Shown piece after piece: positions 4,891-64,000 of a DNA stretch of 64,000 bases (position 1 is the stretch's first letter; every line of letters starts with the position of its first letter). The translations under genes and the position numbers were made by a program. Location: NCBI GenBank assembly GCA_021734445.1, contig JAIPIY010000001.1, positions 31,849-95,848 on the forward strand, given 5' to 3'. This DNA is from Minisyncoccota bacterium. Lineage in GTDB: Bacteria > Patescibacteriota > Minisyncoccia > Phycocordibacterales > UBA1006. The notes under the pieces are model-generated. The model was given only the letters and a program-made list of their open reading frames with translations, did no database searches and was not told where the DNA came from.

Positions 4891-4964
4891 CCGCCCTTAG
4901 CTCAGTTGGTTAGAGCACAGAGCTTATACCTCTGGGGTCCATGGTTCGAGTCCATGAGGGCGGA
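4891..4964 (+). tRNA. tRNA-Ile with anticodon UAU (tRNA-Ile2 lineage, CAU->UAU)
   Basis: Cloverleaf: acceptor CCGCCCT/AGGGCGG, D-arm GCTC-AGTTGGTTA-GAGC, anticodon stem CAGAG/CTCTG with loop CTTATAC (U33, anticodon T34-A35-T36, A37), T-arm CATGG-TTCGAGT-CCATG, discriminator A. The D-arm and acceptor closely resemble E. coli tRNA-Ile2. No CCA is encoded. Confidence 0.8.
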
Positions 4965-5072
4965 CAAAGCATAGGACATCTTGTCCGATCCATAGCGTGA
5001 CGACGCGAGACGGGCTCGCGCAAAAATTCACCAGAATTTTATATGTGAGAGCAAACAAATACTACTAATCAT

Positions 5073-8770: not shown

Positions 8771-9184
8771 ATGAAATCACTAATCTTGCATTGCTCAAAA
8801 TTCAATTCAGAATTCAAGAGTCTTGCCACAAGACCAAAGAATATAGAACCGGAAACGGTTAACCAAACAAAATGGGAACACAATGAATCTGTGGTTGCCC
8901 TTATTACTGTAGAAAAAGAAGACAATATAGAAACCATTTCTAGCCAGATGGCTGAAGAACTTAAAAATATTCTTAAAGATTTAGGTAAAGAAAGTTTAGT
9001 TATTGTTCCATTTGCACATCTCTCAAATAATATAGCAGACCATAGAAGTGCCTTGAGTTTTTTAGATTTATTGGAAGATAAATTAAAAGGATTTAAAATA
9101 TCACGCGTTCATTTTGGATCGCATAAATCGCTATTACTAGATATACCTGGTCATGTCGGTAATGTAAGATTTAGAGAATTTTAA
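8771..9184 (+). CDS. Hypothetical protein
   Basis: 137-aa ORF. Its stop overlaps the start of the downstream methyltransferase (TAATG), suggesting translational coupling. Confidence 0.4.
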   Translation: MKSLILHCSKFNSEFKSLATRPKNIEPETVNQTKWEHNESVVALITVEKEDNIETISSQMAEELKNILKDLGKESLVIVPFAHLSNNIADHRSALSFLDLLEDKLKGFKISRVHFGSHKSLLLDIPGHVGNVRFREF

Positions 9185-43314: not shown

Positions 43315-43348
43315 ATGACTATAGTATAGCATGTTTTTTTTAAAAAGA

Positions 43349-44689
43349 TTACAGAATTTTATGAATCCAATCTTGTGCTTGTTCTTTTGTTGGAGCTTCG
43401 GCAAAAAACCGAACAATAGGTTCTGTGTTTGATGCCCTAACATGCAACCAACCGTTGTCAAAATTCACCTTGATACCATCAGTTTCATCTATAGAGAATT
43501 CTGAAAATATTGTTTTCACTTTTTCAAGATACATTTCAACTTCCTGTCGTGAAGAAACTTCTATTTTGTCTTTTACAATTTCATATTTGGGAATTTCAGC
43601 AACCAATTCGGATAACGTTTTTCCTGTTACCGCAAGCATTTCTAAAATTAATGCAATACCCACATAAGAATCCCGAACATATCCAATTTCTGGCCAAATA
43701 ATACCACCATTCCCTTCTCCACCGAACACAGCCTGATTTTCTACCATTGCATTCGCGACATGAATTTCTCCAATTTGCGTTCGCATGATTTTGCAACCAA
43801 ATTCATTTGCGACATCATCAAACATTTTTGATGTCGAAAGATTTGCAACTACTGGACCCCCTTGTTTTTCTGTACGTGTTTGCAAATAATGACGCATTGC
43901 CAATACTAATGTATATTCTTCCCCAATGGGATTTCCCTTCTCGTCAACAATGGCCAACCTGTCCGCATCAGGATCCTGGGCAAAACCAACCTGTGCACCA
44001 GTTTCGCGAACCTTTTGACCCAATACATCTAAAAATTCTGGCAACGGTTCTGGGTTTCGTTCAAATTCTCCCTCTATTTTTTCATGCAGATATATTGCGT
44101 CAATACCCAATTGCGCCATCATGTATGCATCCGCGTCAATCCCCGCCCCATTTCCCATATCTATAACAGTTGTTAATTTTGCATTTTTTATTACATCCAC
44201 CTGAACATGTTTCAAAATCTTATCAATATGATTTTTACCAGCGTCATCTTTTTTTACAACAGAGCCAGGTGTAGTATCCAACAAAGGATTCTCGCCAGAT
44301 TCATATTGTTTGATAATCTGATTCATAACAGATGGGTCTAAAAATAATCCAAGAGGGGTAAAAAACTTTAATCCATTCCAGGGTGCAGGATTATGACTGG
44401 CGGTGATCATAATACCAGCATCAGCGGATTCTGTGCGAACAGTAAATGCTAATGTAGGAGTTGCGGTGATCCCACAATGAATCACCGTGCAACCATATTC
44501 CCGCAATACACGTATTACAATTTCAGAAATCTCATTACGGCTTTTACGTGTATCAGTACCCAATATTACCTTTTTTGGTTTTACCACATCTAAAAATATT
44601 TTTATGATCTGTTCTGTGTTTTCAGGCAATAATGATTTACCCCAAATACCTCGAATACCTGAAATACCCAGCTTTAATGTGTTTTGCAT
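43349..44689 (-). CDS. Phosphohexomutase (phosphoglucosamine/phosphomannomutase)
   Basis: Active-site ITASHNPAPWNGLKF (phospho-Ser loop), metal-binding DPDADR, sugar-binding GEEYT-like loop. 446 aa. Confidence 0.85.
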   Translation of the reverse strand: MQNTLKLGISGIRGIWGKSLLPENTEQIIKIFLDVVKPKKVILGTDTRKSRNEISEIVIRVLREYGCTVIHCGITATPTLAFTVRTESADAGIMITASHNPAPWNGLKFFTPLGLFLDPSVMNQIIKQYESGENPLLDTTPGSVVKKDDAGKNHIDKILKHVQVDVIKNAKLTTVIDMGNGAGIDADAYMMAQLGIDAIYLHEKIEGEFERNPEPLPEFLDVLGQKVRETGAQVGFAQDPDADRLAIVDEKGNPIGEEYTLVLAMRHYLQTRTEKQGGPVVANLSTSKMFDDVANEFGCKIMRTQIGEIHVANAMVENQAVFGGEGNGGIIWPEIGYVRDSYVGIALILEMLAVTGKTLSELVAEIPKYEIVKDKIEVSSRQEVEMYLEKVKTIFSEFSIDETDGIKVNFDNGWLHVRASNTEPIVRFFAEAPTKEQAQDWIHKIL

Positions 44690-48667: not shown

Positions 48668-51600
48668 TTATTTTGATTCAGTTTCAAACGCTGTATCAAT
48701 GATCCCCTTTGTAACAGAAAACGGCTCAGAAGTAAATACAGGAGTATATGATTCATCTGCATTTTTTGCTTCGATGGTAATATAATAGTTTCCATTTGCT
48801 ATCAAACAATAATATCTTCCTCTTTCATCAATAATTACGTGCTTGATTTCTTTTTGCAGTTTTGCAGAAAATACACGAATAATTCCAAATGACAATGGAA
48901 CACCACGATGCGTAACCGTTCCATGCGGATGTGGTTTTAATAACGTAACACGAACAAAAAAGATGAGAATATATGCGACAAATACAATAATATTTAATGT
49001 TGACGGTAATACAAACAATGTCCATGTTGCAATTCCAAAACCAATCCAAAAGAATAGGCTGGCTATTTTAACCAATATGGCTTCATGTTTCACATCAAAA
49101 CTCATGACACCCATTTCTTTTTTCGCAAATTCATTCCAATTAAATTTCAATGGATCCATGGGAATATTGTGTTTGATTACTTGCCCTTCTTCGGTGATGA
49201 TTATCTGTCCTCCAAAATACAGATTGTCATATACTGCGTCTTTTGTAGTATTTGCCAGTTTTTGTGATGGGAATTGATAATCTGTTTTGTGAATCACAAG
49301 GGTATAGGTTCCTGGTTTCACCAAAAATCCATACCGACCATCCAAATCAGTAATAGAAGTTGCTACTTCGTTACCGTTTACATCCATCAACATCACATAT
49401 GCTGGATCAAGAGGTTGTTTGGTTACTGCATCATATACAACCCCCCATTTTTCTACTTTTTTCTTGAGACCAAGACCCGACAGTAGGAAATTCCACAATC
49501 GCATAGGTACCGTAGATAACTGTGGTAACAATGCCATGCCTGCGGTTGCAATACCGGCAACACTGGCCAAGATACCTAATGTGGTCATTGTTTTACCAGT
49601 AGTGCTTTGCACAAAATCAGTTACAGAAGCAACTATTTCTTCAATGAAATCAGTGAATCCTGATGATGAGCCATCTGACCCCTGATTATCCGTAGTTGAT
49701 GATAAGGTATCTTCATTATCATCAAAAGGAAAATCTTCAAATTCCTCTTCAGTATCTTCCATATCTTCTTCATCTATGGGCTCATCTTCGTCTACCGGGT
49801 CTTCGGTTGGTGATTCTGGGGTTGGAGTATTTGGTGAATCAGTAGGCTCTCCTGTTGTTGGTGGCTCACCGGTAGATGTAGTTGTTGGAACAATAATAGC
49901 CGAACCTCCAGAAGAAGATGTGCTATCTGTATTTGAATCTTCTTCCTCATCTTCTGGCTCTACTGCTTGAGTAATAGCAAATGATGAAAAAGAGGTGGCA
50001 TTAAAAATACATCGATTTTTACTATCAATAGTACACTGAGTTAACGCAGACCAAGAGCTTGATTCTGGGGATTTGTGAAATACTGTATATGTTTCTCCTA
50101 TGATAATTCCGGGTATATTTTCAAGCTGAATTTCAACAGACTGAGAAGCCTGTAAATTACTGTTTGGTAATCCAAAAGAAAAACTACGCAGAACTTCTTG
50201 ATTATCAATACCGGGTAGTGTAGTAAGGCCCAAATCATCTATTAACGTCAGGGCTTCAAAATTTGTTTTACCTAAATATCTAAATTCAGTCCCTGCATCA
50301 ATCGTAATTCGATCATTAATAGAAATTGAATCAAAGACAATAGCATTATTAAACAATGCGCGTATACCATTTGTTCCTTCGAATCTCTCTCCCCAACCCT
50401 CATTCAGGGGTTCATATATTCCTGATCTATACAAAGACCAAACAAGATCATCTCCAGAAACAGTGTAAGAATTAGTTGCATCAAGCCAAGAAATTTGAGA
50501 ATTATCAACAGCATTAGGGTTCATATACCCATATCCATATCCATACGTGAATTCATTCCCAGGAGCAGAAGATCCACCAGATGTATCATATTTTGAAACT
50601 TCTAATTTCCATCCAGCAGAAGGGGCCGTATCTATATGAAGCACATGCGGAACATCTTCAGATAATACAAAATCCAACCCATACATGCTCGTAAAAGAGT
50701 CTCCTAATAAATCCATTCGAAACCAAGCACTACCATCTACAAGCCTTTCAACTGATGTATTATAATTCAATGGATTACCATCATCCGAATATGCCACATA
50801 CAATACTCCATCCGAATCAGCTTCCATTTTAATATATTGAGGAGCATGACTTGAAAAACCTTGTGCGCCGACAAAAACACCTCCACCAGAAGAAACATCT
50901 TTTACAGAAACATGCCCGCCTCCATATGCATAGTCCTGATATGCAATATACAAACTATCATCGACAGATACCATATCAAAAGAACCCGATATAGTTGTAT
51001 ACAATGGATGTAATAGAATTGATTCCCACTCTAATGCCAAAGTTTTCACATCAATACGATACAAAGAACCATCATAATATTTATAAGCAACATAGAGATC
51101 ATCATTATCATCAATAGAAAAACTCAATACTGACATAGCCCCGGTAGCAACAACCTCTGTTGTTGGTCCTTCTACATTTTCCCAATCAGGTCCATTGTCA
51201 TATTTTAAAACACGCAGAGTTCCCGTATCATTAATAGCAACATGAACAACGTCCTGTGAATCCAGAGCGATTGCATGATCATACATAGTAGCAAGAGTCA
51301 TAATAGGACCAGCACCAATCACTTGCCAAGAACCACCAACCAATTTAATCACCGTGGGCCCAGTAGTTCCCTGGAATAAAACATAGGGCACATCCTGAGA
51401 ATCCAAAGCAATCTTTGGTCGGGAACCCGTAAATCCCGTTTCCTGAAATGTATTCCATGACCCCTCTGTGTATCCAACAACTTTTATGGCACCTGAAAAA
51501 TTATCCACATACGCCACAGCAATTTTATCATCTGAACCTCTTGCCATGGAAAACCCTTGTGCCAGACCAACCGATGTAGTAGGAAAAATATTTTCTGAAA

Positions 51601-51838
51601 TATCAACCCATACTGGATTTGAAACCATTCTATATCCCGCTAACTGTCCCAAATCCCAACCATATCCGTATCCATAACCATATCCATAGCCATATCCCCA
51701 ACCAACAGACCCTGTTTGCCGTGCAAACTGAGCAAAAGCAACACCCGAACTGGCAATCAATCCAATAATCAGAATAGCAATGAAACTTTGTTTTTTTGTA
51801 ACGAAAAAATTGTGTATTTTTTTTATGTGCTGGATCAT
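48668..51838 (-). CDS. Giant (1056 aa) surface protein: N-terminal GY-repeat module, beta-propeller-like repeats, acidic linker, TM segments, C-terminal carboxypeptidase-regulatory-like domain
   Basis: Signal peptide then [28 protein letters not shown]; a second GYGYGY block; repeated ...LYVAY/LYIAY blade-like motifs; D/E/T/S-rich linker; hydrophobic helices; C-terminal [39 protein letters not shown]. Confidence 0.6.
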
Positions 51839-51894
51839 AATGATTTTTTTATAGTAATAGCTTGCGTCCTATAGTATACTATACACACAAAAAT

Positions 51895-53376
51895 ATGCAT
51901 AGAGTATCTTCTTTTCTACAACAACATAGTGTGACCATTATTTTATTTGGTATTCTTATCTTTGGAGGATATATCCGACTACACAATCTTGGTGAACCAT
52001 CGCTATGGATTGACGAAGGTTATTCCATCAATGCTGCACAACAGATTTTAAAACACGATGTACCATTGTTGGAATCTGGTCAGATGTATACCAACCAACC
52101 CCTGGCATCATATATTGTTGCCGGGTCAATAAAGATTTTTGGCTTTGATCCTTATTCCCCATGGAGCGCGCGATTACCCTTTGCATTATTTGGAATATTC
52201 AATATTCTTATGGTTTTTTTGTTAACCAAGAGATTATTTGATGACCAATGGATTGCGTTAGGGGCTGCATTTTTTACTGCCTTTTTCCCATGGGAAATTG
52301 CATGGGCCAGACAAGCCCGAGGATACAGCATGTTGCAATTCTTTCTCTTGCTTTCTTTTGATCATGTAATTGGATTTATTCAAGAAAGAAAAACCTATCA
52401 TGCACTATTAGCCAGCATTTCTTTTCTATTTGCTTATTTCAGTCATAATCTCGCTATTGCTTTTTTACCGGGATTATTTTTGGTTCTTGGGCTATGGATG
52501 TTATTGGGCATTCAAAAAATATCTTGGAGAAAATCTTGGCCATTTTTATTATTATCCATTGCCGCAATAGCAGTCGGGCAATCGTGGTTGCAAAATCTTG
52601 ACATTATTAATTATATAGAATTTTATAATCGATTTATTATCGAAAATATGCCATGGATATTTGGATTTGGATTCATAGGATTTATTTTGGCGATTTTTCA
52701 AAAAAGATATATCGTATCAGGTATTCTTTTATTAGGAACCACCACTATTGCCTATGTTATTATTGCGTCATATGGAGTAACATTACAATATCGATATCTT
52801 GTGCCCCTGATCCCCTTTTTAGGAATTGGATGTATTTATTTTTTATATGATATTTTTCATAAAATAATCAGTGCGACAAAAAGGTATTCATTACATACTA
52901 TTGTTTCCCCTATTGTGTGTATTATTTTTTGTATCTTACTGGTTATAACAAATCAATCTGTATTTCACCCAACATCGCAACTAGATACCGGTTCCCCACA
53001 GCCAGATTTTAAACATGCCTACGAATATATTAAAGAAAATAAAAATCCTTATGACGTAGTTGTCTCTCCTTATGCACATTTAACAAATATCTATTTAGGT
53101 TATCCTGAAACACTATTACCCATATCATTAACTGGACGAACACAAGAATTTAATCTCACCATAACAAAAGAAAATACTGATTATTATACAAATGCCCCTA
53201 TTGTACAACAAGATGAATTTTTAAATTTCATACATAACAATAATGGATATATTATTCTAGACAGCATGGCAATTTCAAGAATTCCAGAAATAATGCAGAC
53301 AATTCAGTCACAAAAACTGCAATTAGTATTTTTGAAATATCAAAATACGCTAGGAATTTGGGTTTTTAAATTTTAA
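51895..53376 (+). CDS. GT39/ArnT-like (PMT_2 family) polyprenyl-phosphate-sugar-dependent glycosyltransferase
   Basis: Multi-TM. SLWIDEGYSINAAQ, FGFDPYSPWSARLPFALFG, FPWEIAWARQARGYSMLQFFLL. Start taken at ATG 51895 (the track starts at TTG 51862). A paralog lies at 62901. Confidence 0.7.
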   Translation: MHRVSSFLQQHSVTIILFGILIFGGYIRLHNLGEPSLWIDEGYSINAAQQILKHDVPLLESGQMYTNQPLASYIVAGSIKIFGFDPYSPWSARLPFALFGIFNILMVFLLTKRLFDDQWIALGAAFFTAFFPWEIAWARQARGYSMLQFFLLLSFDHVIGFIQERKTYHALLASISFLFAYFSHNLAIAFLPGLFLVLGLWMLLGIQKISWRKSWPFLLLSIAAIAVGQSWLQNLDIINYIEFYNRFIIENMPWIFGFGFIGFILAIFQKRYIVSGILLLGTTTIAYVIIASYGVTLQYRYLVPLIPFLGIGCIYFLYDIFHKIISATKRYSLHTIVSPIVCIIFCILLVITNQSVFHPTSQLDTGSPQPDFKHAYEYIKENKNPYDVVVSPYAHLTNIYLGYPETLLPISLTGRTQEFNLTITKENTDYYTNAPIVQQDEFLNFIHNNNGYIILDSMAISRIPEIMQTIQSQKLQLVFLKYQNTLGIWVFKF

Positions 53377-53641: not shown

Positions 53642-54853
53642 TTATAGACCTAATATCGATTCGACGAAGAGAAAAGAATCTTCAAATGTCTTTTCCCAAC
53701 TGGTTTCCATGTTATTTGCACGGTAGTTTTCATATCTTCCTTCGGGGTTTTGTGCCAACATAACTGCTTGTTTGAAATATATATCCACAAAATCATCCCG
53801 TATAATATCTCCACATATAATATTTTTTGAATAATGTGCATTCGTCCTCTTTTGATAGGTATTTGTTAATGCAACACCACCACTGGATGCGATATCCATG
53901 GGCATATATCCAGGATGTGGTGTCCATAATAATGAAAACCCAAGATCCACTTTTTTTAAAAAGTCTGAATATTCTTCCCATGTCATTTTACCTAATACAT
54001 GCGGAATAACACCATTAAAAAAATGAGGTGGATCAATATTCTCTCCGGCAAAATAAATTTTCCATTTTTCTTTTTCTAAAACTTTTTTTTGAAAAGCTTC
54101 TTCAATCAATTTTAAACCTGTATAGTATAAATTGCGAGGCGTATTCGGGCGTGCATAAAAGAGCAATACATAGGTATCCTTCGGAAGAAATGCATTCTTA
54201 TTCGGTTGATATAAATGTGAAGTAAATGCGGGTTCGAAATAAATACTATTATGTTTGATATTTTCAAAAGATGAGTTTTGAAAATATTCAAATAAAATCC
54301 TAGAATTTACAATATATTTTACTCTTGGATTCGCTAATACTTTTTCACACCAATATGCATCATCGCCGTTATTATAGAATACAACTTCTGATTCTTGAAT
54401 AATGTGAAAAAAGTTTTCCATAAGACACACCTTATTAACAAGATAGGAAGACCACCAAGATGTTGCAACAAATATATCTTTTTCAGATATTTCCAAGGCA
54501 GTATTATATGATTCTGCAGTATAAGTACTAAAAAACTCTACCTGTATAGGCTTTTCTATGTTCATAGATTTTAAAAAGTTTTCATATGCAACTGGTTGTG
54601 CTTCCTCATCTCGTATAATAATTCGTAATACATAACCCGTACGTAGCGCAAAAAGAGTTGCAAATATAATCACTGTTGCTACCCCTCCAAAAACATACTT
54701 ATCTTGTAGTGAATCCAGCACAAGATTGATTCGATAAGAATCACGAGACACCCTCTTTGTTTTCCAAACAGGCAAATATGCTAATTTTGTATACATAAGA
54801 TGTTGAACGGATTGCATATTATTTTTGATCAAAAAAATCTTTTGTATAATCAA
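53642..54853 (-). CDS. Hypothetical protein, possibly a glycosyltransferase (N-terminal TM anchor)
   Basis: 403-aa ORF with one N-terminal TM helix and a soluble domain; no clear family motif. Its location in the glycan locus is the only functional hint. Confidence 0.35.
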   Translation of the reverse strand: MIIQKIFLIKNNMQSVQHLMYTKLAYLPVWKTKRVSRDSYRINLVLDSLQDKYVFGGVATVIIFATLFALRTGYVLRIIIRDEEAQPVAYENFLKSMNIEKPIQVEFFSTYTAESYNTALEISEKDIFVATSWWSSYLVNKVCLMENFFHIIQESEVVFYNNGDDAYWCEKVLANPRVKYIVNSRILFEYFQNSSFENIKHNSIYFEPAFTSHLYQPNKNAFLPKDTYVLLFYARPNTPRNLYYTGLKLIEEAFQKKVLEKEKWKIYFAGENIDPPHFFNGVIPHVLGKMTWEEYSDFLKKVDLGFSLLWTPHPGYMPMDIASSGGVALTNTYQKRTNAHYSKNIICGDIIRDDFVDIYFKQAVMLAQNPEGRYENYRANNMETSWEKTFEDSFLFVESILGL

Positions 54854-57800
54854 TATTTAAATCAGTGTTTACCCCAACTTTTTTCTTTTCACCCTGACCA
54901 ATCCACATCTCGCATTCCAGGCGGTACGATTCAAACTCCCACCCACGCTTATCTTTTCTATCATGCAATTGTAATTCTCTTTTTTGTATAGAAGGTAATG
55001 TTCTTATATATACACTTTGAGCCCACCAAAAATTACCTGAAAAATGAGAGTGTGTATGCACAGAAAATGGTTGTCGTATAGAATTATCAACAGGATGTTC
55101 TTTCCATCCACAACCAGCAATATCACAACCTTTGTTTAAAAAAGATATACACTTTTTATATTCTTTTATATTTTTTTCCACAAGCCGTTCTCTCCATTTT
55201 ATTTTTACAGAATCATTTGATTGTGACACCCCTTTTGTATGACAATAAAAAATATACGCATCTTGTGTATGTGAAAATTCTTGCAAATAGGTTAACAATG
55301 GATATTCTACTTCGGTAATATCGGGACTAGTATATACACATTTCATTTTTTTATATGTTTTTAATAAAAGCAAAAAAGAATCGGTTGGATCCCCAAGCAG
55401 TGCATAGTATATTTCTTCGCATTCATCATATAATCCTGAATCTTGCATGGATTGTATCATCGTATGCACAATTTCAGCATAATTATATATACAACAAATA
55501 TGAAAAAATACATATATTTTTTTTGTTTTTTGGATACTGTAATTATCTGGGATCAAAGTAATAAAATCATAGCTATATCGATTTTGAGGATATTCATATA
55601 TCACCCTTCCTGCGTCATATACTAATTTACCCACATATCTCTCTAGCCCATGAATAACAGTTCCATTCTCAACATATCCCATAGGTTGCTCTTTTTCTAA
55701 AAAACTAATAAACTTTTGAGAAATTATTTTTTCAAGAATATCATAGCGAACCCAAAAAATACTTCCAGATATCCAGGAATATTGAGTGTGTTGTTCATCT
55801 GTATGGGCATAGATTTTTTCAATAGAAGGTTCATATACTTCATCTGAAGAAAAAATATTTCCCAATGCACCAACATGACTACCCCCTATCATACCTGCAT
55901 CTGAATATTCTAAGTTATGCAAAATTGCATTGACTGTTTTTTCATCATGCAACACATGATCCATAAGATCATAAAACCATTTCGCACCCATAGATGGATC
56001 ATACAAAGATTTTTTAGTATGCACTTTCAAGATAAATTGAGTATCTTTTGGGACATGAGCTAGCGCCTTTACAAAAGGTAATATATCTAATCCTTGATTT
56101 TCATATGTAAAAATCTTTACATCAGGGTATGCATTTTTAACTTTTTTTATAAAGCTTTTTGAATAATGACCCTGTGTCAAGGTGATAATAATATGAAATG
56201 GCTCTTCTATATATTGCAACCGTTTATAAATTTCTTCCCACATATCTTCATAAAAAATATGCGCAATAACCGTAATACGAGGATGCTTCGTGTCTTTCTG
56301 TGTTACAAGCGGGGTATACAAGAATTTTGTTTTGCGACGCAAGAAATATTTTTCAAAAAATTTCTTTGGATTATATATTGCCCAAATTATCTGTGGGTAG
56401 GTTGGCATAGATCTCCAAACATGCTTTTTGAGAAATTTTAAAGGGTGTAAAATAACCCAACGAATTTGTGGATAAGTAGGAAACCCTTGCCACACGTTTT
56501 TTTTCAAAAAACGAAGAGGGTGATGTAATGCCCACCGTATTCGTATATACAGATTTTTCATTTTTGCCAAAAGAGAATTCGATTGTATATGCATAAGAAG
56601 ATTTTCTTTTTGTTGCAATACCTGCTGTGTTGTTTGCAAAGCAAGTTGGATAGACTGAATATGATCTTGCAATGATGCAATATATCGGTCTTTTTCAATA
56701 ACACCTTGAGAAAGAAAATCTTTTTCTAACATAGTAACATCTATTTGTTTTTCTTTTTCCTGAACAAGGTTCTGCAATTCCAATTCTTTTTGTTGTTTTT
56801 TCTCTAGCAATTGAATCAAGGCAAATGTTTTTTCACGATAGTTTTTTTCTATTTTTTCTAATCTTGCAATTACAGCTTGTTGTCTATCATCATGAGAATG
56901 TTGATCTATATGCATCTTTTCAAGAATATCCTGCTTTGACGTAGAAATATTTTTTTGAATAGCTTCAATGTCTTTATTTTGTTGTTCTAAGTAGGTGCAT
57001 TGATTTTCCAAAACCTGTATCTGCTGTAGATAGGTTGCCTTCTCTTTGTCAAAATCTTTTTCTAACCAGTCGTGTAACATGGATGCATCACGCAACATCA
57101 TGGCTGAAAACCCTATTTCTGACATATCATAATCAGAAACCATATACCCAGACATGTCTAAATTTCGATATAACCGAATATCAAATAATTTAACTACAAA
57201 TTCTTTTTTTTCTTGATATTGTTGTGCTAAAAAACCAAAAGGATCGGCATCAACGAATTTCTCTACTTCTCTTTGAAAATTCGCGTGTAATAGATTATAC
57301 GAAACGTAGATATTTTTTTTATTATGGATACATTCCTGTATTGAAGAATAGGTTCGAGACCACAGAGAAAAGAAATTTTTTACTGCTGTAATATTTTTTC
57401 TTTTCTGTAGTGAGTATATAATTTCTATTGGATTACGGTAGGTAATAATATAACAAGTATTCTCTGGTAAATACTCTTGCCATAATGGCAACGTAATTGG
57501 CATACGAGGGTCTTTTATACCCCATACAGCTTTTTGTGATTGCATGTCATGAATAAATGATTCAATACGATCACGAATAGAATTTAATCGTACATCTTTT
57601 TGCCAACCATATTGCAATATGGGAATAGTATCCCAGGTACCACCAAATACTGACAAAATATCATCATTTATGGACATGACCTTGTTGTTTTCAAAATACC
57701 CATATGGATTTTCAACTGTTTGCGACAGCATGTCTTCTTCTCTGCCAAGAAAAACACCTAATTTAGACAATATACCAGAAACAAGGGATGTCCCACTGCG

Positions 57801-57878
57801 ATGCATCCCTAATACAATATAACAGGTATGTTTTTGATTCATTGTGCACAATATATAGGTTTTTCTGTTGAAATACAA
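54819..57878 (-). CDS. WbbB-like multidomain glycan assembly protein: Stf0-type sulfotransferase, ~160-aa coiled coil, tandem repeats, RgpF-like glycosyltransferase, second GT-like domain
   Basis: aa 18-260: sulfotransferase motifs MHRSGTS (5'-PSB) and TYRNPIEIIYSLQKR (3'-PB). aa ~270-435: heptad-rich Q/E/K coiled coil. aa 440-516: three tandem copies of R(W)xxxHPLxFLKKxVW...PTYPQI. aa ~530-770: AHIFYEDMWEEI...KVHTKKS, RgpF (rhamnan synthesis F)-like. aa ~785-1019: a second nucleotide-sugar-transferase-like region (...FYCHTKGVS...GNFWWAQ). Confidence 0.6.
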   Translation of the reverse strand: MYFNRKTYILCTMNQKHTCYIVLGMHRSGTSLVSGILSKLGVFLGREEDMLSQTVENPYGYFENNKVMSINDDILSVFGGTWDTIPILQYGWQKDVRLNSIRDRIESFIHDMQSQKAVWGIKDPRMPITLPLWQEYLPENTCYIITYRNPIEIIYSLQKRKNITAVKNFFSLWSRTYSSIQECIHNKKNIYVSYNLLHANFQREVEKFVDADPFGFLAQQYQEKKEFVVKLFDIRLYRNLDMSGYMVSDYDMSEIGFSAMMLRDASMLHDWLEKDFDKEKATYLQQIQVLENQCTYLEQQNKDIEAIQKNISTSKQDILEKMHIDQHSHDDRQQAVIARLEKIEKNYREKTFALIQLLEKKQQKELELQNLVQEKEKQIDVTMLEKDFLSQGVIEKDRYIASLQDHIQSIQLALQTTQQVLQQKENLLMHIQSNSLLAKMKNLYIRIRWALHHPLRFLKKNVWQGFPTYPQIRWVILHPLKFLKKHVWRSMPTYPQIIWAIYNPKKFFEKYFLRRKTKFLYTPLVTQKDTKHPRITVIAHIFYEDMWEEIYKRLQYIEEPFHIIITLTQGHYSKSFIKKVKNAYPDVKIFTYENQGLDILPFVKALAHVPKDTQFILKVHTKKSLYDPSMGAKWFYDLMDHVLHDEKTVNAILHNLEYSDAGMIGGSHVGALGNIFSSDEVYEPSIEKIYAHTDEQHTQYSWISGSIFWVRYDILEKIISQKFISFLEKEQPMGYVENGTVIHGLERYVGKLVYDAGRVIYEYPQNRYSYDFITLIPDNYSIQKTKKIYVFFHICCIYNYAEIVHTMIQSMQDSGLYDECEEIYYALLGDPTDSFLLLLKTYKKMKCVYTSPDITEVEYPLLTYLQEFSHTQDAYIFYCHTKGVSQSNDSVKIKWRERLVEKNIKEYKKCISFLNKGCDIAGCGWKEHPVDNSIRQPFSVHTHSHFSGNFWWAQSVYIRTLPSIQKRELQLHDRKDKRGWEFESYRLECEMWIGQGEKKKVGVNTDLNIDYTKDFFDQK

Positions 57879-57881
57879 GAA

Positions 57882-58535
57882 CTAGAGTAAATCTCTATAT
57901 AATTCTACATCTTGTGTATTATAAGACCGTATTTTTTCTTCGTTGTGCAGACCTTTTATGGGAGTAATATTTTCTGATATACCATTCCAATGAAATCCTA
58001 GATTTTGTACATCTTTATGAAATTGTTCTGTGCGACAAATAATAAGATCTGGAAAAGAAATATCAATAGACCGAGATAGCATGTTTTGAGATCTTATATA
58101 ATGATCATCTGTTATTTCATTAATGCCCCAGTGAACCTTATAGTGATCTAACTCTGACATTACTCGATCAATAGGATCGCGGACAAAAGCGAGTGTGGTA
58201 ATGTGAAAAAAATGAGAATCAAGTTTTCTTAGCATGTGCCATGTGATCTCTTTTTCAAAATGACCATGAATCGCATAAATATTATTTTCTTTAATATACG
58301 CAATAACATCCTCTATCAAGATTCCTTTAGATTCATGTATCATGTCATGAATACCTTGTAGGGTGTGGTGTATAACAAAACGACTTGCATCATTTTCACA
58401 TGGATATACATACAAGAATGAATCACCAAATGAATCTGCTAAAATTTTCCCAAATGTAGTTCCACCTGTTTTAGGAATATGCACAGAAAGTAAAAATGTT
58501 TCTTTTGTATCTATTTTTTCTTTTAAATTTTTCAT
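57882..58535 (-). CDS. Stand-alone sulfotransferase
   Basis: 5'-PSB HIPKTGGTTF and 3'-PB FVRDPIDRVMSE motifs. 217 aa. Confidence 0.7.
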   Translation of the reverse strand: MKNLKEKIDTKETFLLSVHIPKTGGTTFGKILADSFGDSFLYVYPCENDASRFVIHHTLQGIHDMIHESKGILIEDVIAYIKENNIYAIHGHFEKEITWHMLRKLDSHFFHITTLAFVRDPIDRVMSELDHYKVHWGINEITDDHYIRSQNMLSRSIDISFPDLIICRTEQFHKDVQNLGFHWNGISENITPIKGLHNEEKIRSYNTQDVELYRDLL

Positions 58536-58537
58536 AT

Positions 58538-59761
58538 TTATTCAGACCAACGATGTGGCATGTGAACCAAACCATTTCGTTTATCGCCTGGAATTACCTT
58601 GAAATATGCTTGATGTTCCGACCCCAGATACATGTCATAAAATACCTGTTCGCCATTTTCTTTTTCAGAAAATAAACTAGTATTAATAACAAATTCACCT
58701 TTATGAAACAAAGCTTCGGGGAATGTTAACACTATCCTATTTTTTCCTTTTTTCCATGGATGTTGATATGTTTCATACAACGTATTATTGCCACACACCC
58801 ACGCATCTGTTTTTTTATCCAATATTCCCAAACCAACATGCAACTGTTGTGAAATATCTTTGATATCATAATTAATTTCAATACGTATTGTTTCTCTAGA
58901 TTCAAAAACTGATGTTTCTATGTTTCTATCATTATACAACCGAACATCAACGATTGAGTTTTTCTTTTTTTTTGTATCTGAAACAGTTTCATCCTGCTGT
59001 TCCTGCATTAATAATTTTTGATATGCAAAAAGAGATTTTGCGGCGGTATCTATGATATGCATCCGACCATGATCCAAAATTAATACCCTATCTGCAAAAT
59101 CTCGTACAGACTGTTCTCCGTGGGAAACTAATATAATAGTTTTTCCCATACGTTTCAAACGACGCAATTCCGCAAGACATTTTTCTTGAAATGGTGCATC
59201 CCCAACTGCCAACACTTCATCCATTAACAATACCTCTTTGTTAGCATGAATGGCCACAGAAAAAGCTAACCGCATATACATCCCCGAAGAATAGTTTTTT
59301 ACCTTTTGATCAATAAATCTTTCTAATTCAGAAAAATTAATAATGGCATCGATTTTTTCATCAATTTCTTTTTTAGACAAACCCAATACGGTTGCATTTA
59401 AATAAATATTATCACGTCCTGACAATTCACCATGAAACCCAATACCCAACTCTAGAAAAGGAGATATTCCACCTGATACGATTACTGAACCTGAATCCTG
59501 TTCATACACACCAGCAAGAATCTTTAACAGAGTTGATTTTCCGCTACCATTTCGCCCCATAATAGCAAAAAATTCACCTTGATAGACATCAAAAGAAATA
59601 TCGTCCAATGCATGCAATACATCATGGGTTCTTTTTTTCATCATGTGTACAAACATGCCCCGCAACGTTTGTATCTTTTCATGAGGAATAATAAATTTTT
59701 TATTCAGATTACGTACCGACACAGCAACGGTGGTATTTTTTTGTTCTGTACTTTTTTTCAT
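58538..59761 (-). CDS. wzt: Polysaccharide ABC exporter ATP-binding protein (Wzt/TagH type) with C-terminal glycan-binding domain
   Basis: Walker A GRNGSGKSTLLKILAG, signature LSGG-like, Walker B LLMDEVLAVGD. An extra ~150-aa C-terminal beta-rich domain, as in Wzt. Confidence 0.8.
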   Translation of the reverse strand: MKKSTEQKNTTVAVSVRNLNKKFIIPHEKIQTLRGMFVHMMKKRTHDVLHALDDISFDVYQGEFFAIMGRNGSGKSTLLKILAGVYEQDSGSVIVSGGISPFLELGIGFHGELSGRDNIYLNATVLGLSKKEIDEKIDAIINFSELERFIDQKVKNYSSGMYMRLAFSVAIHANKEVLLMDEVLAVGDAPFQEKCLAELRRLKRMGKTIILVSHGEQSVRDFADRVLILDHGRMHIIDTAAKSLFAYQKLLMQEQQDETVSDTKKKKNSIVDVRLYNDRNIETSVFESRETIRIEINYDIKDISQQLHVGLGILDKKTDAWVCGNNTLYETYQHPWKKGKNRIVLTFPEALFHKGEFVINTSLFSEKENGEQVFYDMYLGSEHQAYFKVIPGDKRNGLVHMPHRWSE

Positions 59762-60537
59762 ATATATTCTGCAATACGTCGTGATGTTTTTTTAAACAAA
59801 AGAATGCTGAGAACCAGAAATCCTATACAAGCCAATACCATAATAATAACATGATGTGTTTGTGCAAATAAATCAGAAATGAGTCCCTGTTTAGAAAAAT
59901 GAATAATAAATGCAAGAGGACTGACAAGTAACCATCGGTGCAAATATTCTGGTAACATCACCAGTGGATACACGATAGGTGATGCATACATTAATATCGA
60001 TACAAGAACCTCCCATATCATAGAAACATCCCGAAACCGAACAAATAAAGGGGCTAAAATAAATGAACAGGCAAGAATGAAAATATACAATAAAATAATA
60101 GAACCCAAAAAGAATATTATTCCACCTACGCTTGGCATTTTTCCATAATAGATAAAAAATCCAACTACCACGACCAAATTAGTAATAAATACTAACAAAG
60201 AATGTAATGTTGACGATACAACCAATGTCCATCGGGGCAAAGCAATTTTGGTTACCAATTGTCCTTTTGATAACAATGCAGACATTCCCGATGATGTTCC
60301 CTCTGCAAAAAAATTAAACATTAAAAATGCGGTTAACAATTCCAGGGTATAAAAAGGAGTACCCATGTTTTTAAAATTAAAAATAGAACTGAAAACAAAA
60401 TTTAATACCAAAAAAAACAACAGCGGTTTCAATAATGCCCAAATATACCCCAGCCAAGAATTTTGATATCGCAAAAGAAAATCCGTCTTTGCAAGACGTA
60501 TAATTAATTCTTTATAAGTAAACAATGAAGATAACAT
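59758..60537 (-). CDS. wzm: ABC-2 family polysaccharide exporter permease (Wzm)
   Basis: 6 TM helices, ABC-2 topology. Start overlaps the wzt stop by 4 nt. Confidence 0.75.
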   Translation of the reverse strand: MLSSLFTYKELIIRLAKTDFLLRYQNSWLGYIWALLKPLLFFLVLNFVFSSIFNFKNMGTPFYTLELLTAFLMFNFFAEGTSSGMSALLSKGQLVTKIALPRWTLVVSSTLHSLLVFITNLVVVVGFFIYYGKMPSVGGIIFFLGSIILLYIFILACSFILAPLFVRFRDVSMIWEVLVSILMYASPIVYPLVMLPEYLHRWLLVSPLAFIIHFSKQGLISDLFAQTHHVIIMVLACIGFLVLSILLFKKTSRRIAEYI

Positions 60538-60543
60538 ATATGA

Positions 60544-61677
60544 TTAACAAAGATACTTTTCCAGTATACCAGAAATTACTGATCGGTGAGTAACGGTAAT
60601 CTCTCCTGTTCTTTCTTTAATGTTCTCTGTCAGAGATACATTTTTCACCATAAGAAGATGTTTCAAAGATTCTCTGCTATATCCAATAGGAAACAAGTCC
60701 TGGGTATACCACATATTCGTATCAGTATTTTGTGTAATAATGGGTACACCATAGATCATTGCATTTACAATCTTACCACTACCCTGCAGAGAATCTTTTT
60801 GCTTTGGATCGATACACACACCGGCAATTGATAACAGTTCAGATAAGGTATTTGCTGATAACGGACTTATGACAGTGTATGCATCTTTAGGGATATCATT
60901 TGGAATGAGTAACATTTTCGCAGGACCACCTGCAATGACCCAAAACACATCTTTATTTTCTCGTATCATATTCCAGACAGCAGATACATTTTTATCAAAT
61001 GAAAACCCTCCTGCATATACAACAATAGGTACATCAGATGGAAGATGATATTTTTGATATATAGTATTTTTGTCATGTGTGTGCAATTCTACAGATGGCA
61101 CATCAGGTAAAAATACCACCCGATCTATACGAAATTCTTGTATATGCGCCATTAATTCTAATGAACTGGTCGTACACAGGGCTGGCAATGTATATATCCA
61201 TGCCTCGATTCGAGATACTATTTTTTTCACTATATTATTATGTATATTGAGTTCTTTTACCAACCCTCCATGAAAATCACCAATGATTTCAATATTTTTC
61301 CAAAAAAATATTCTTTTACACAGCCAACCAATACATACACCCTCGTAAAGATGTGCATAGATACAAATATTTTTTTGCTGTGATTGTATAATATTTTTAA
61401 TCAACGTATTTAATAACAAAACATCAAATAAAAAACGTGACCAATGAAAACCCATTGGCAGTGTATTGATCCAAAACAAAGGATTCCAACATCTGACAAC
61501 AGAAATATGTTTCGGTGTTTCCCCAAAAGGATACGTGTATACCGTAGCATTATATCCCAAATCCAAAAGTGTTTTTACAAAAGCATACACACGAAAAGAA
61601 GTCCCTCGAGATGAAAGAAATACCGTCGGGGCAACCACAAATATAGAGGTATTTTTTTTCATCTCTTTTTGCTTCAT
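60544..61677 (-). CDS. GT-B fold glycosyltransferase (GT4-like)
   Basis: Two Rossmann-like halves; IVVYAGGFSFDKN...IAGGP; C-terminal IYGVPIITQNTD. 377 aa. Confidence 0.5.
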   Translation of the reverse strand: MKQKEMKKNTSIFVVAPTVFLSSRGTSFRVYAFVKTLLDLGYNATVYTYPFGETPKHISVVRCWNPLFWINTLPMGFHWSRFLFDVLLLNTLIKNIIQSQQKNICIYAHLYEGVCIGWLCKRIFFWKNIEIIGDFHGGLVKELNIHNNIVKKIVSRIEAWIYTLPALCTTSSLELMAHIQEFRIDRVVFLPDVPSVELHTHDKNTIYQKYHLPSDVPIVVYAGGFSFDKNVSAVWNMIRENKDVFWVIAGGPAKMLLIPNDIPKDAYTVISPLSANTLSELLSIAGVCIDPKQKDSLQGSGKIVNAMIYGVPIITQNTDTNMWYTQDLFPIGYSRESLKHLLMVKNVSLTENIKERTGEITVTHRSVISGILEKYLC

Positions 61678-61804: not shown

Positions 61805-62860
61805 TTATCTACCCAATAATGCTTTTATAACTGCAAGAGTTTTTGGACCAACGATACCATCTACAGTAAGTCCATGTTTTTCTTGGAATTTTTTTACTGC
61901 TGCATCTGTCAAGGGACCAAAATATCTTGTTTCGTTTCCAGGTGATCCGGCACCAACTACTGCAAGTTGTGTCGCAGGGTCACTGTTAAGGAATTGTTGA
62001 AGTTTCAGAACATCATCTCCTAACATGGAAATACGTAATGTTCTTTCAAGTATTTCTGATAGATTCATATCACCCCCCAGAGATTGTAATTGAGCTTGAA
62101 GAATTGCAACCATATGGAGCAATAATCCACGTAGTTGATTTTGCAATGTTGGAACATCAGATGATAATAGTATTGGATTAATAGCTGAACTACTTCCTCC
62201 TGAAGAACCACCTCCGCCACCAGAACTACATGCAGAAGTTGATTTAGTTGTAGCGTTATTATTCCATATATTTCCACCAGCATCTTCAGATAATACACGA
62301 ACATCATATTCAGTACCACAAGTAAGACCGGTAATAGTTACCGTATATTCATCAGCTGTTTCTAATTCAGGATCAGTAGATGCATCATAGTCACCTTCAC
62401 CATATTCTACAGAGTTTGTTGCAGTATAGGTTGTTGTATAGGTAACAGCAAGAGTTGTTTTTGTTGTATCAATAGAATTAATCACTGCAGATCCATCGTC
62501 TCCAAAGAATCCATAGTCACTGTAATTATTTACACCAGATTTAAAACTGTAACCATATCCATATCCATCACCATTATCATAACCATAACCATAACCATAA
62601 CCAAACTCCAACAGAGGAAGTGTTGTTCGATAGAACTGTGCATAGGCAACAGCACCGCCGGCAAATGCAAAAATCATACCTAATACAAGCATTTTTTGTA
62701 TTGAAATATTTAGCCCACGTAATGTATTTTTAATATTCATAATCTTTTTCTTTATATTGTTATTAATGGCACTTTGCACAAGATACTTATAGTATAGGCA
62801 ATTTTTGAATATAAAACAAGAAGTTATCCACAGTTTTGCATAAAACAAAATTAACCCCAA
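61805..62860 (-). CDS. Secreted GY-repeat protein with Gly/Ser linker and C-terminal peptidoglycan-binding domain
   Basis: Signal peptide then [35 protein letters not shown]; central beta-rich domain; SSGGGGGSSGGSSS linker; C-terminal PG_binding_1 (TRYFGPLTDAAVKKFQEKHGLTVDGIVGPKTLAVIKAL). Confidence 0.55.
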   Translation of the reverse strand: MGLILFYAKLWITSCFIFKNCLYYKYLVQSAINNNIKKKIMNIKNTLRGLNISIQKMLVLGMIFAFAGGAVAYAQFYRTTLPLLEFGYGYGYGYDNGDGYGYGYSFKSGVNNYSDYGFFGDDGSAVINSIDTTKTTLAVTYTTTYTATNSVEYGEGDYDASTDPELETADEYTVTITGLTCGTEYDVRVLSEDAGGNIWNNNATTKSTSACSSGGGGGSSGGSSSAINPILLSSDVPTLQNQLRGLLLHMVAILQAQLQSLGGDMNLSEILERTLRISMLGDDVLKLQQFLNSDPATQLAVVGAGSPGNETRYFGPLTDAAVKKFQEKHGLTVDGIVGPKTLAVIKALLGR

Positions 62861-62900: not shown

Positions 62901-64000
62901 ATGAGTACACAACACCAATCATGGCATACCTATGTATTTCTCATCCTCTTTTTCTTGATATTGGTCGGAGGGGCTTTTTTACGTTTTTACAAATTAGGAC
63001 ATCAGTCATTATGGATTGACGAAGGGTATTCCATCAACGCCAGTCAGGCAGTACTAGACCATGGATACCCGACATTGGATTCCGGTGAAAATTATACTGG
63101 TCATATATTCTCCACCTACATCATTGCGGGTTCTATGCAATTATTTGGTTTTGAACCCTATTCCCCATGGAGCGCCCGATTACCTTCGGTGTTATTTGGC
63201 ATCGGCGTTATATTCATGACCTACATGTTTGCCTACCGATTAACAGAAAACCGCTGGGTCGCATTGGGGGCAATGTTATTTGTCGCATTTTTGCCCTGGG
63301 AAATTGCCTGGTCACGTCAAGCCCGCGGATATGTGATGTTACAATTTTTCCTTCTTTTGACATTTGATAAACTGATATACATTATCAAAAGCATTCATAC
63401 AGATGATTTTAAAAATAAATTACAGCATCTGGGATTATTATTATTGTATGCCATTTTAGGTTTTCTCAGTCACGGAATCGGTATCGCATTTATTATACCC
63501 ATTGTCATACTATTGGGAATAGTAGTATATACACAGAGAAAAAATAGCTCACCTTGGTTATGGATGACAACCGCGATTATGGGTGCTTATGTTTTGTATC
63601 GTGGAATTAAATATGTATTTAATGTATCTCTTGAAAATTATTTTTCTTCTTATGCGCATTTTCTGCTACAACAGTATCCACTAGAAACAGTGTTTACCAT
63701 TGTTGGTATTATCAGCATGTTTTTCTTTGCCCAGAAAAAAATCAACGCCGTATGTATTACCGCAGGCATTGGTATTCCTGTTATTGTTTTGTCTTTGTAT
63801 ACATCAATACAGATGCGCTATTTAGTACCCTTGATACCCTTTTTAGGTAGTATGATTTCTTATGGAATATATAATACGATTGATCTATCTCAAAAAACAT
63901 TCTTTCCTGATTTTAATAGAAAACATATAATTGGATGCATCAGCATGGTTGGGATTATTCTATTATTGGTATTACAGCCTGCATCATTTATCCCCCAATC
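62901..64000 (+). CDS. GT39/ArnT-like glycosyltransferase paralog (3' end outside window)
   Basis: MSTQHQSWHTYVFLILFFLILVGGAFLRFYKLGHQSLWIDEGYSINASQ...FGFEPYSPWSARLPSVLFG...LPWEIAWSRQARGYVMLQFFLL: a clear paralog of 51895..53376. The frame is open to the window end and it is absent from the ORF track. Confidence 0.7.
   Translation, partial: MSTQHQSWHTYVFLILFFLILVGGAFLRFYKLGHQSLWIDEGYSINASQAVLDHGYPTLDSGENYTGHIFSTYIIAGSMQLFGFEPYSPWSARLPSVLFGIGVIFMTYMFAYRLTENRWVALGAMLFVAFLPWEIAWSRQARGYVMLQFFLLLTFDKLIYIIKSIHTDDFKNKLQHLGLLLLYAILGFLSHGIGIAFIIPIVILLGIVVYTQRKNSSPWLWMTTAIMGAYVLYRGIKYVFNVSLENYFSSYAHFLLQQYPLETVFTIVGIISMFFFAQKKINAVCITAGIGIPVIVLSLYTSIQMRYLVPLIPFLGSMISYGIYNTIDLSQKTFFPDFNRKHIIGCISMVGIILLLVLQPASFIPQ

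Follow-up and report, generated by a model that had tools for sequence, protein, structure and literature searches.

A putative sulfotransferase-spacer-polymerase protein in an ABC-transporter-dependent glycan operon of a Candidate Phyla Radiation bacterium

Glycans exported by ATP-binding cassette (ABC) transporters are, in the textbook account, "made to measure" by a cap that terminates the chain and a coiled coil that acts as a ruler. [quoted passage not shown] In the S-layer glycan (slg) cluster of Geobacillus, with the gene order wzm-wzt-wsaE-wsaF, WsaE joins an N-terminal 2-O-methyltransferase, which makes a 2-O-methyl cap, to two rhamnosyltransferase domains (PMC2943079). ORF6 of the Klebsiella O7 system combines a methyltransferase-kinase, a coiled coil, and two GT-A (GT2) glycosyltransferase (GT) modules that add rhamnose (PMC11231755). 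Here we describe a locus in a 64-kb stretch of contig JAIPIY010000001.1 from a Minisyncoccota bacterium, a member of the Candidate Phyla Radiation (CPR); this whole stretch is called the window below. We are close to certain that positions 53642-61677 of the window, on the minus strand, form an ABC-transporter-dependent glycan operon with a sulfotransferase-spacer-dual-GT-A enzyme, which would be a sulfate version of the known length-control mechanism.

The open reading frames (ORFs) of the window were compared to Pfam, and gene coordinates throughout are window positions. The genes of the operon and the domains of its products are the following, where pLDDT is the predicted local distance difference test score of the structural models:

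60544-61677, minus strand: operon gene 1, a GT-B/GT4-like glycosyltransferase of 377 aa (Glycos_transf_1 22.1 bits, Glyco_transf_4 19.4 bits, both below cut-off)
59758-60537, minus strand: Wzm, an ABC-2 permease of 259 aa (ABC2_membrane 50.3 bits), with a 4-nt overlap with wzt
58538-59761, minus strand: Wzt, an ABC ATPase with a C-terminal carbohydrate-binding module, 407 aa (ABC_tran 75.8 bits, Wzt_C 52.0 bits)
58559-58966, minus strand: the Wzt_C module, Wzt residues 266-401 (PF14524 52 bits, cut-off 30.4; model positions 8-143 of 143)
57882-58535, minus strand: a stand-alone Sulfotransfer_2 protein of 217 aa (PF03567 33.9 bits)
54819-57842, minus strand: the fusion protein of 1007 aa, with sulfotransferase, helical spacer, three repeats, GT-A module 1, and GT-A module 2
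57159-57842, minus strand: its sulfotransferase domain, ORF residues 13-240, the predicted chain terminator
56523-57119, minus strand: its helical spacer, a candidate coiled-coil ruler, ORF residues 254-452
56319-56543, minus strand: its three tandem basic/aromatic repeats, 25 residues each, W..HP..F.KK
55584-56318, minus strand: its GT-A module 1, RgpF-like, ORF residues 521-765 (Pfam RgpF)
54822-55583, minus strand: its GT-A module 2, DUF8361/PF27674, ORF residues 766-1019 (precomputed Pfam assignment; pLDDT 90-98)
53642-54853, minus strand: a WsaF-type rhamnosyltransferase, the final operon gene (WsaF_C 123.9 bits, WsaF_N 54.9 bits)

An earlier note on this DNA had described ORFs at 54819-60537, including a Wzm/Wzt exporter with an extra C-terminal domain on Wzt and a second, stand-alone sulfotransferase, and all of them were present at their given coordinates, on the minus strand. 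The intergenic gaps range from -4 to +6 nt, except for a nominal 35-nt overlap at 54819-54853, and a scan for promoters and terminators gave no useful signal: promoter-like sites were less frequent than in shuffled sequence. The top NCBIfam match of Wzm is the galactan export permease Wzm/RfbD, and the WsaF-type protein matches the solved Geobacillus WsaF (2x0e/2x0d) over residues 9-352 with an E value of 3e-34. Gene 1 probably encodes an adaptor or priming glycosyltransferase, and its equivalent lies upstream of wzm in two related CPR loci, L001 (378 aa) and L002. The fusion protein was first given as 1019 aa, which is the length of the maximal ORF (54819-57878) read from an upstream TTG; the true start is almost certainly M13, an ATG at 57842, because the GenBank protein from this metagenome-assembled genome ([quoted passage not shown], 1007 aa and identical to ours) and both close orthologues begin there.

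The N-terminal domain of the fusion protein is a genuine sulfotransferase-fold domain of Sulfotransfer_3-like type. In an alignment of 35 relatives, the window protein included and its sulfotransferase residues numbered from M13, the residues G12, H14, R15, S16, G17, T18, S19, N45, G48, E51, K110, D111, P112, R113, R136, and S144 were invariant in all 35 sequences. Among these are both binding motifs for 3'-phosphoadenosine 5'-phosphosulfate (PAPS) that the earlier note had reported, namely the 5'-phosphosulfate loop HRSGTS and the 3'-phosphate motif R-x7-S (RNPIEIIYS, R136-x7-S144), and the KDPR motif is invariant as well. The spacing R15...E51...K110...R136-x7-S144 may resemble the catalytic set of TPST2. 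When the 35-sequence profile was compared to the Protein Data Bank (PDB), each of the 40 matches was a sulfotransferase-fold protein, with SULT1A3 the best (E 1.2e-5) and CurM-ST, TPST, StaL, and Stf9 also found. The AlphaFold model of residues 1-220 has a pLDDT of 85-98, and a Foldseek search of the PDB with the N-terminal model returned sulfotransferases at all of ranks 1-33, TPST2 at the top (E 2e-5) and then CurM-ST, Stf9, Stf1, an olefin-synthase sulfotransferase, Teg14, and StaL; P-loop kinases (gluconate and adenylate kinases) appeared only from rank 34. Pfam found Sulfotransfer_3 in 30 of the 35 relatives (E <= 0.01, best 5.8e-15), Sulfotransfer_1 in 19, Sulfotransfer_4 in one, and no other family. 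The initial label of Stf0 type had to be dropped, with Stf0 among neither the 50 fold matches nor the 40 profile matches listed.

The sulfotransferase domain is followed by a long helical region, modeled as one helix at residues 242-313 (72 residues) and another at 324-440 (117 residues), with pLDDT values of 74-90 and a low-confidence break between the two. Proline is absent from its 199 residues and glycine occurs twice; Q, L, K, E, and I are abundant. Among three CPR orthologues the spacer shows zero indels, and its sequence identity is 43-51%, compared to 62-68% for the flanking domains; this conserved length despite sequence drift is suggestive of a spacer or ruler role (n = 3). By arithmetic, 190 residues at 1.5 Å per residue would span approximately 28 nm in a fully extended parallel coiled coil. 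The three tandem repeats that come next are real in the protein, where W449, W474, and W499 mark a period of exactly 25 residues, and a tandem-repeat search of the fusion gene at the DNA level found nothing relevant, the repeats being visible in the protein only. They are kept in two orthologues, P0002 and P0003, with two copies in P0122 and none in the other proteins retrieved for comparison, and the model folds them as short helix pairs with pLDDT values of 57-78. ORF residues 441-520 hold 18 K/R and 1 D/E, for a net charge of +17, along with 17 aromatic residues, and the fusion protein has no transmembrane segment along its whole length. We infer that the repeats, placed where the terminator WbdD has an amphipathic helix (PMC11231755), are a candidate membrane-interface anchor.

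The C-terminal half resembles a dual-GT-A polymerase in its predicted structure. The RgpF-like glycosyltransferase proposed earlier was recovered by Pfam (RgpF, PF05045) with 89.8 bits and an E value of 2e-25 (cut-off 25) over residues 527-757; because only positions 264-502 of the 503-position model match, this is one module of the RgpF architecture and not a full RgpF. Module 1 has a GT-A fold (pLDDT approximately 90) with conserved N-x-G-x-D, HTKK, and H..ER motifs. The second GT-like domain, also anticipated, is DUF8361, and the RgpF C-half and DUF8361 modules are distant paralogues that both adopt the GT-A fold: hhalign aligned module 1 with module 2 over 175 columns (probability 77%, E 2e-5), the two share the motifs HTK(K/G), WR, and G-x-x-FW, and MAFFT placed RgpF-only sequences on the DUF8361 half, a placement that revealed the paralogy. 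The canonical DxD motif was absent from the conserved columns of both modules. Modeled together, residues 521-1019 gave a pLDDT of 90.2 and a predicted template modeling score of 0.86, and the best PDB fold matches were PmHS2 (Pasteurella heparosan synthase 2, E 1e-10), K4CP (Escherichia coli K4 chondroitin polymerase), LARGE1, and CHSY3-CHPF, each of which spans both modules (525-680 columns), with single GT-A enzymes ranking after them. Elsewhere, DUF8361 occurs alone or fused to GT25, GT34, GT10, methyltransferase, or sulfotransferase domains.

In matriglycan synthesis, LARGE1 is a dual-GT-A co-polymerase, and the polymer is stopped when the HNK-1 sulfotransferase sulfates the terminal sugar. 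The likeness to the window protein is one of analogy and not of pathway homology, and the mammalian system differs in being eukaryotic, in working in the Golgi lumen, and in having neither a coiled-coil ruler between the enzymes nor an ABC exporter. Streptococcal RgpF/GacG act with RgpCD on a monoderm wall polysaccharide that is ABC-2 exported; the window protein is like them in its RgpF match and unlike them in matching only the C-terminal half of that model, and we know of no terminator or ruler for RgpF. Rhamnose as the sugar of the window glycan is inferred by analogy from the RgpF and WsaF family names only, and no rml genes were found in the 64-kb window.

The exporter carries what a cap-dependent pathway would be expected to have. 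The best solved relative of Wzt is the full-length Aquifex aeolicus Wzt (8dku/7k2t), which it matches over residues 40-374 with an E value of 6e-65, and the Wzt_C module is kept in the CPR orthologues, where whole-Wzt identity is 71-78%. By analogy with characterized transporters, Wzt_C is predicted to recognize the glycan cap; an alignment of Wzt modules from sulfotransferase-linked systems showed no recognizable shared basic pocket. The adjacent stand-alone Sulfotransfer_2 protein has the motifs PKTGGTT and RDPxxRxxS, and a protein search with it returned only itself and the orthologue in L002 (63% identity). Its probable role is the addition of a second sulfate, at the cap or along the chain. 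Its gene is absent from L001, in whose lineage it is dispensable and a methyltransferase domain appears instead.

As a whole pathway, the Geobacillus S-layer glycan cluster is the closest to the window operon, and the closest characterized analogue is WsaE/WsaF or Klebsiella O7 ORF6 rather than WbbB. Like the slg cluster of Geobacillus stearothermophilus NRS 2004/3a, the operon belongs to a monoderm organism, has the order wzm-wzt-[terminator plus two GT]-wsaF, and ends in a WsaF homologue; in Geobacillus, too, the capped end is the part that Wzt is predicted to bind, and a surface protein finally carries the glycan (PMC2943079). The two differ in the cap enzyme, a sulfotransferase in place of a 2-O-methyltransferase, and the likeness to WsaE is one of architecture. 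The window also adds the approximately 190-residue spacer and three basic repeats between cap enzyme and polymerase, has the extra stand-alone sulfotransferase, and is flanked by two PMT/ArnT-like GT-C glycosyltransferases, with no WsaB-type oligosaccharyltransferase seen.

Klebsiella O7 ORF6 and the WbbB of Klebsiella O12/Raoultella have an N-terminal terminator, an extended coiled coil, two C-terminal GT modules, and a partner Wzt with a binding module; the fusion protein has a putative terminator, a candidate coiled coil, two GT modules, and such a Wzt in the same order and setting, but the caps there are methyl-phosphate (O7) and beta-Kdo added by a GT99 domain (O12) where a sulfate is proposed for the window, and the GT modules of the window protein are an RgpF C-half and DUF8361. 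The description of the protein as WbbB-like by the earlier note stands for the terminator-spacer-polymerase order (sulfotransferase at 1-230, helices at 242-440, repeats, and two GT-A modules) and fails for the family itself; membership of the WbbB family was rejected, there being no GT99 domain and no sequence match. A phmmer search with the fusion protein against PDB chains found no solved relative, hence no match to any solved WbbB chain. An O-antigen product was likewise rejected, since the host, a monoderm CPR bacterium, is without an outer membrane. Finally, the WbdD-WbdA pair of E. coli O9a and Klebsiella O3 has a coiled-coil ruler with the terminator at its far end and a membrane element at its near end, and its terminator gene directly follows wzt, export there requiring the cap (PMC11231755). 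Terminator and polymerase are separate in that pair and fused in the window, and the chemistry there is that of a kinase and a methyltransferase.

Searching a collection of 5.8 billion proteins, we found only two full-length relatives of the fusion protein, P0002 (67% identity) and P0003 (50%), both in CPR-type contexts. Loci L002 and L003 have the order Wzm, Wzt(Wzt_C), Sulfotransfer_2, 1007-aa protein, WsaF. Locus L001 reads epimerase, GT2, RmlD-like gene, 378-aa gene, Wzm, Wzt(Wzt_C), and a 1608-aa protein in which a GT1 and a methyltransferase join the sulfotransferase, spacer, repeats, and both GT-A modules; the locus is without the stand-alone sulfotransferase and without WsaF. As for conservation of the fusion in related genomes, which had been proposed as a check, synteny is kept in three CPR genomes, and the exact fusion was not found in our search of the GTDB species genomes.

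The sulfotransferase family itself is far larger. Its cluster representatives number 20,168 at E <= 1e-3, a figure that falls to 11,315 at E <= 1e-10, and a motif scan of one genome per species placed it in at least 563 genomes, including those of Paenibacillus, Bacillus, Pseudomonadota, Desulfobacterota (including Desulfobulbales), Planctomycetota, Actinomycetota, Cyanobacteria, two CPR phyla, and a Bathyarchaeote. The sulfotransferase is N-terminal in approximately 105 of the 119 best matches, which are proteins of 600-1770 aa that usually carry GT2, GT4, or RgpF domains, frequently with a long helical, coiled-coil-like stretch behind the sulfotransferase; our coiled-coil measure was developed in-house and over-calls short segments, so that only regions of at least 70-100 residues were used. 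Neighborhoods were counted in 80 fetched genome loci of the family. Both wzm and wzt lie within 10 kb in 23 of the 80, with a Wzt of at least 360 aa in 19 of these 23; the sulfotransferase gene directly follows wzt in 10 loci (gap -4 to +83 nt), and its ORF is at least 800 aa long in 26. Pseudomonas gozinkensis, for instance, has GT2, Wzm, Wzt (470 aa, Wzt_C), a sulfotransferase-spacer-GT1 protein, and a GT1+RgpF protein, with a WsaF-like gene farther along, and Desulforhopalus has a sulfotransferase+GT1+RgpF fusion and a stand-alone Sulfotransfer_2, then Wzm and Wzt(Wzt_C). The combination had been regarded as lying outside the established models, a view contradicted by this abundance, across phyla and often beside wzm/wzt, of proteins with an N-terminal sulfotransferase, a spacer, and GT domains. 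Family members were also seen in archaea: one in L013 (Candidatus Bathyarchaeota, QMXC01000082.1) has the motif [VI][LV]GMHRSGT and 39% identity, and the Aenigmatarchaeota multi-GT protein P0064 carries the same sulfotransferase family.

By analogy with the characterized systems, the operon would produce a lipid-linked, probably rhamnose-containing surface glycan by an ABC-transporter-dependent route. The 1007-aa protein would be a peripheral-membrane terminator-spacer-polymerase whose two GT-A modules lengthen the chain at the membrane together with the separately encoded WsaF-type rhamnosyltransferase; the basic/aromatic repeats would keep the polymerase end on the membrane, and the approximately 190-residue helical spacer would keep the N-terminal PAPS-dependent sulfotransferase off it. 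Only chains that are long enough would then reach the sulfotransferase, and sulfation of the nonreducing end would block further extension. We propose this sequence, in which the chain is polymerized at the membrane, sulfated once it spans the spacer, and read by Wzt, because it follows the published terminator/ruler rule. The Wzt C-terminal module would bind the capped end, and Wzm/Wzt would export the finished chain. The stand-alone Sulfotransfer_2 would add further sulfate to cap or chain, and the exported glycan would be attached to a wall component, possibly the GYGYGY-motif proteins encoded on either side of the operon.

We consider this reading as a whole, in which a sulfate cap terminates a length-measured glycan and Wzt exports the capped chain, to be modestly probable, and several results weigh against it. 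Sulfotransfer_3 matches the fusion protein (residues 21-207) with 19.8 bits for the full protein and 21.2 bits for its N-terminal half, below the gathering cut-off of 27, so that of the sulfotransferase identification expected from both profile search and structure, the fold was borne out by the 33 best Foldseek matches and the Pfam threshold was not reached. The spacer, put at about 160 residues of coiled coil in the earlier note, is indeed made of long helices, but they come to approximately 190 residues (72 + 117), and their 3.5-residue hydrophobic periodicity compared to shuffled sequence has z scores of 2.5 and 2.0 for the two helices; because this is only modestly above shuffled, a coiled coil is likely but not proven, and the monomer model is compatible with either a parallel coiled coil or a hairpin. 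In L007 (8356-14497), an RgpF - sulfotransferase - spacer - RgpF protein follows a 220-aa Wzt without a binding module, and the link of the sulfotransferase to cap-reading transporters is therefore not universal. L006 has no wzm/wzt within 10 kb and two extra sulfotransferases, and the clusters of L006 and L035 each have at least three sulfotransferases, a number that a polysulfated polymer would explain no less well than a single cap. A literature search on sulfotransferases and Wzt found no biochemical case of sulfate terminating a bacterial glycan. The wb cluster of Aeromonas salmonicida, beside the S-layer genes, encodes Wzt, a 216-aa protein with a sulfotransferase domain, WbbB, further genes, and an ArnT-like gene, an order that mirrors that of the window, and no sulfate is known in that O antigen, the sulfotransferase being left unexplained by the authors (PMC4483657); an acid-labile terminal sulfate may have been missed there.

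Much of this would also follow if the sulfotransferases decorated the chain to give a polysulfated polysaccharide, the helices served only to oligomerize or scaffold the protein, and length was set by transporter/polymerase stoichiometry or by another feature read by Wzt_C, an explanation that we regard as possible though rather unlikely. The two sulfotransferases of the window operon, the still higher numbers in L006 and L035, and the module-less Wzt of L007 all fit it; terminal modifications without length control are known, such as the pyruvate of Klebsiella O1 (PMC11231755), and a crude coiled-coil measure is weakly enriched with wzm/wzt (15 of 23 loci versus 25 of 57). In every characterized system, however, the enzyme placed distally on a long coiled coil is the terminator (PMC11231755), and against decoration stand also the strictly kept spacer length among diverging orthologues, the sulfotransferase genes found in the wbdD/wsaE position directly after wzt, and the cap-reading type of module on the window Wzt. 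It is quite unlikely, in our estimate, that the stand-alone Sulfotransfer_2 makes the export-competent cap and the fused sulfotransferase modifies, for example, the adaptor or lipid-proximal end. In its favor, the gene for Sulfotransfer_2 separates wzt from the polymerase gene, and similar stand-alone genes lie beside the Desulforhopalus fusion and between wzt and wbbB in Aeromonas (PMC4483657). The window and Desulforhopalus stand-alone proteins are barely alignable. L001, on the other hand, lost this gene and kept the fused sulfotransferase, spacer, and Wzt_C, and the Sulfotransfer_2 protein is lineage-specific (two database members) against the very large wzt-linked family of the fused domain. 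A parallel for a Sulfotransfer_2 cap would be the mammalian HNK-1 sulfotransferase, which belongs to the same family as the window stand-alone enzyme and stops matriglycan synthesis.

The supply of PAPS bears on whether the fused domain works at all. ATP sulfurylase, adenosine 5'-phosphosulfate (APS) kinase, CysD/N, and CysQ were not found among the Pfam-scanned ORFs of the window, and motif searches and tblastn with CPR Sat, CysC, and CysQ found none in the window or in L001-L007; both results count against a sulfate cap. One published study of sulfur metabolism in CPR-containing biofilms makes no mention of PAPS. The negatives in the window and the orthologous loci would fit a domain that is catalytically dead or repurposed, whether as a nucleotide-binding, kinase-like, or structural head, with an unsulfated glycan since the organism would be unable to make PAPS, and the subthreshold Pfam score and the kinship of the fold to P-loop kinases point the same way. 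We consider this very unlikely: the PAPS search covered approximately a quarter of one 252-kb contig, all family-invariant residues are kept, including the 3'-phosphate-binding R-x7-S, within the N-terminal half this domain is the most conserved (65-68% identity among CPR orthologues), and a second sulfotransferase with intact motifs adjoins. PAPS-pathway motifs occur within 10 kb in 13 of the 80 loci, and equivalent operons of other CPR genomes encode the activating enzymes. L009:5488-12322 (Candidatus Moraniibacteriota) contains Wzm, Wzt(Wzt_C), APS kinase, an inositol-monophosphatase-family (CysQ-like) protein, ATP sulfurylase, a sulfotransferase-spacer-GT4 protein, GT2, and an epimerase, and L035:3687-11089 (Candidatus Dojkabacteria) contains Wzm, Wzt(Wzt_C), ATP sulfurylase, APS kinase, two sulfotransferases, a sulfotransferase-spacer protein, and a WsaF-like protein. 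With one GT or none on the sulfotransferase-spacer protein, both are nearer the WbdD format. Judged by gene content, these reduced genomes have sulfate activation dedicated to a surface glycan; enzymes of the family are therefore employed together with PAPS, and the pathway can be present in reduced CPR genomes.

The flanks of the operon hold the following genes:

51862-53376, plus strand: PMT/ArnT-like GT-C membrane glycosyltransferase 1 (PMT_2 41.5 bits)
48668-51838, minus strand: a 1056-aa secreted/anchored protein with GYGYGY motifs (CarboxypepD_reg at 799-857)
61805-62860, minus strand: a wall protein of 351 aa with GYGYGY motifs; peptidoglycan-binding domain at residues 281-344 (PG_binding_1 58.9 bits)
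62901-64000, plus strand: a second PMT-like GT-C paralogue, 379 open codons and running past the window end (Pfam PMT 26.5 bits)

Each flank is thus a divergent pair of a GYGYGY-motif secreted wall protein and a PMT/ArnT-like GT-C enzyme, and one such pair is kept in L001. The two GT-C proteins are 40% identical to each other (E 9e-76). In L001, the orthologue of the GT-C 1 gene adjoins the fusion gene, a 1047-aa counterpart of the 1056-aa protein adjoins this PMT_2 gene, and VIT1 and ribonucleotide reductase follow among the neighbors as in the window. The arrangement suggests the flanking GYGYGY-motif proteins as possible final acceptors of the exported glycan or of a lipid-linked sugar, and the divergent pairs may form a module that glycosylates proteins with the exported glycan. 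More speculatively, GT-C 1 might use the exported glycan or a polyprenyl-phosphate sugar, and the 1056-aa protein would be a candidate glycosylation target. That both parts hold, i.e., that a terminal sulfate is read by Wzt and that the glycan is then attached to GYGYGY-motif wall proteins by the two PMT/ArnT-like GT-C enzymes, seems to us unlikely; if true, it would be the first sulfate-terminated chain-length control in bacteria, together with an undescribed route of surface-protein glycosylation in ultrasmall CPR episymbionts.

A sulfate cap would add a charged, PAPS-costly chemistry to the described terminators, and the family, with its more than 11,000 cluster representatives and its presence in at least 563 species genomes, could be among the commonest unexplored ones. 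For host-attached CPR bacteria, a sulfated wall glycan of defined length is a plausible determinant of the host interface, and Sat and APS kinase in operons of two CPR lineages, one of them with a CysQ-like phosphatase, suggest that reduced genomes invest in sulfation. The 2019 census of terminator chemistries by Mann, Kimber, and Whitfield reportedly "predicted new chemistries", and the sulfotransferase terminator family was probably already catalogued there; two reviews citing that census make no mention of sulfotransferases. The sulfotransferase-spacer-GT architecture is therefore not a one-off and has probably not gone unnoticed, and as far as the literature we found shows, it is experimentally unexplored. 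Cultivable relatives that carry the family include Pseudomonas gozinkensis and Paenibacillus.

The remaining genes of the window encode ribosomal proteins, SecY, Mur ligases, tmRNA/SmpB, and a VirD4-like protein, and because of this content and a G+C content of approximately 36%, the window is consistent with a CPR/Patescibacteria chromosome. The VirD4-like gene (18961-21726, minus strand) encodes a TrwB/VirD4-like coupling protein of 921 aa. At 40312-43461 on the minus strand, between an NTP-transferase gene and phosphoglucomutase, lies a gene in chromosomal context whose 1049-aa product carries Peptidase_S74, the domain that acts as intramolecular chaperone in endosialidase and tail-spike proteins. 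A tRNA-Ile with the anticodon TAT is encoded at 4891-4965 on the plus strand; in most bacteria, AUA is read by a lysidine-modified CAT tRNA. Also on the plus strand are a stand-alone archaeal-type threonyl-tRNA synthetase editing domain (8771-9184) and a SET-domain protein (11311-11706).

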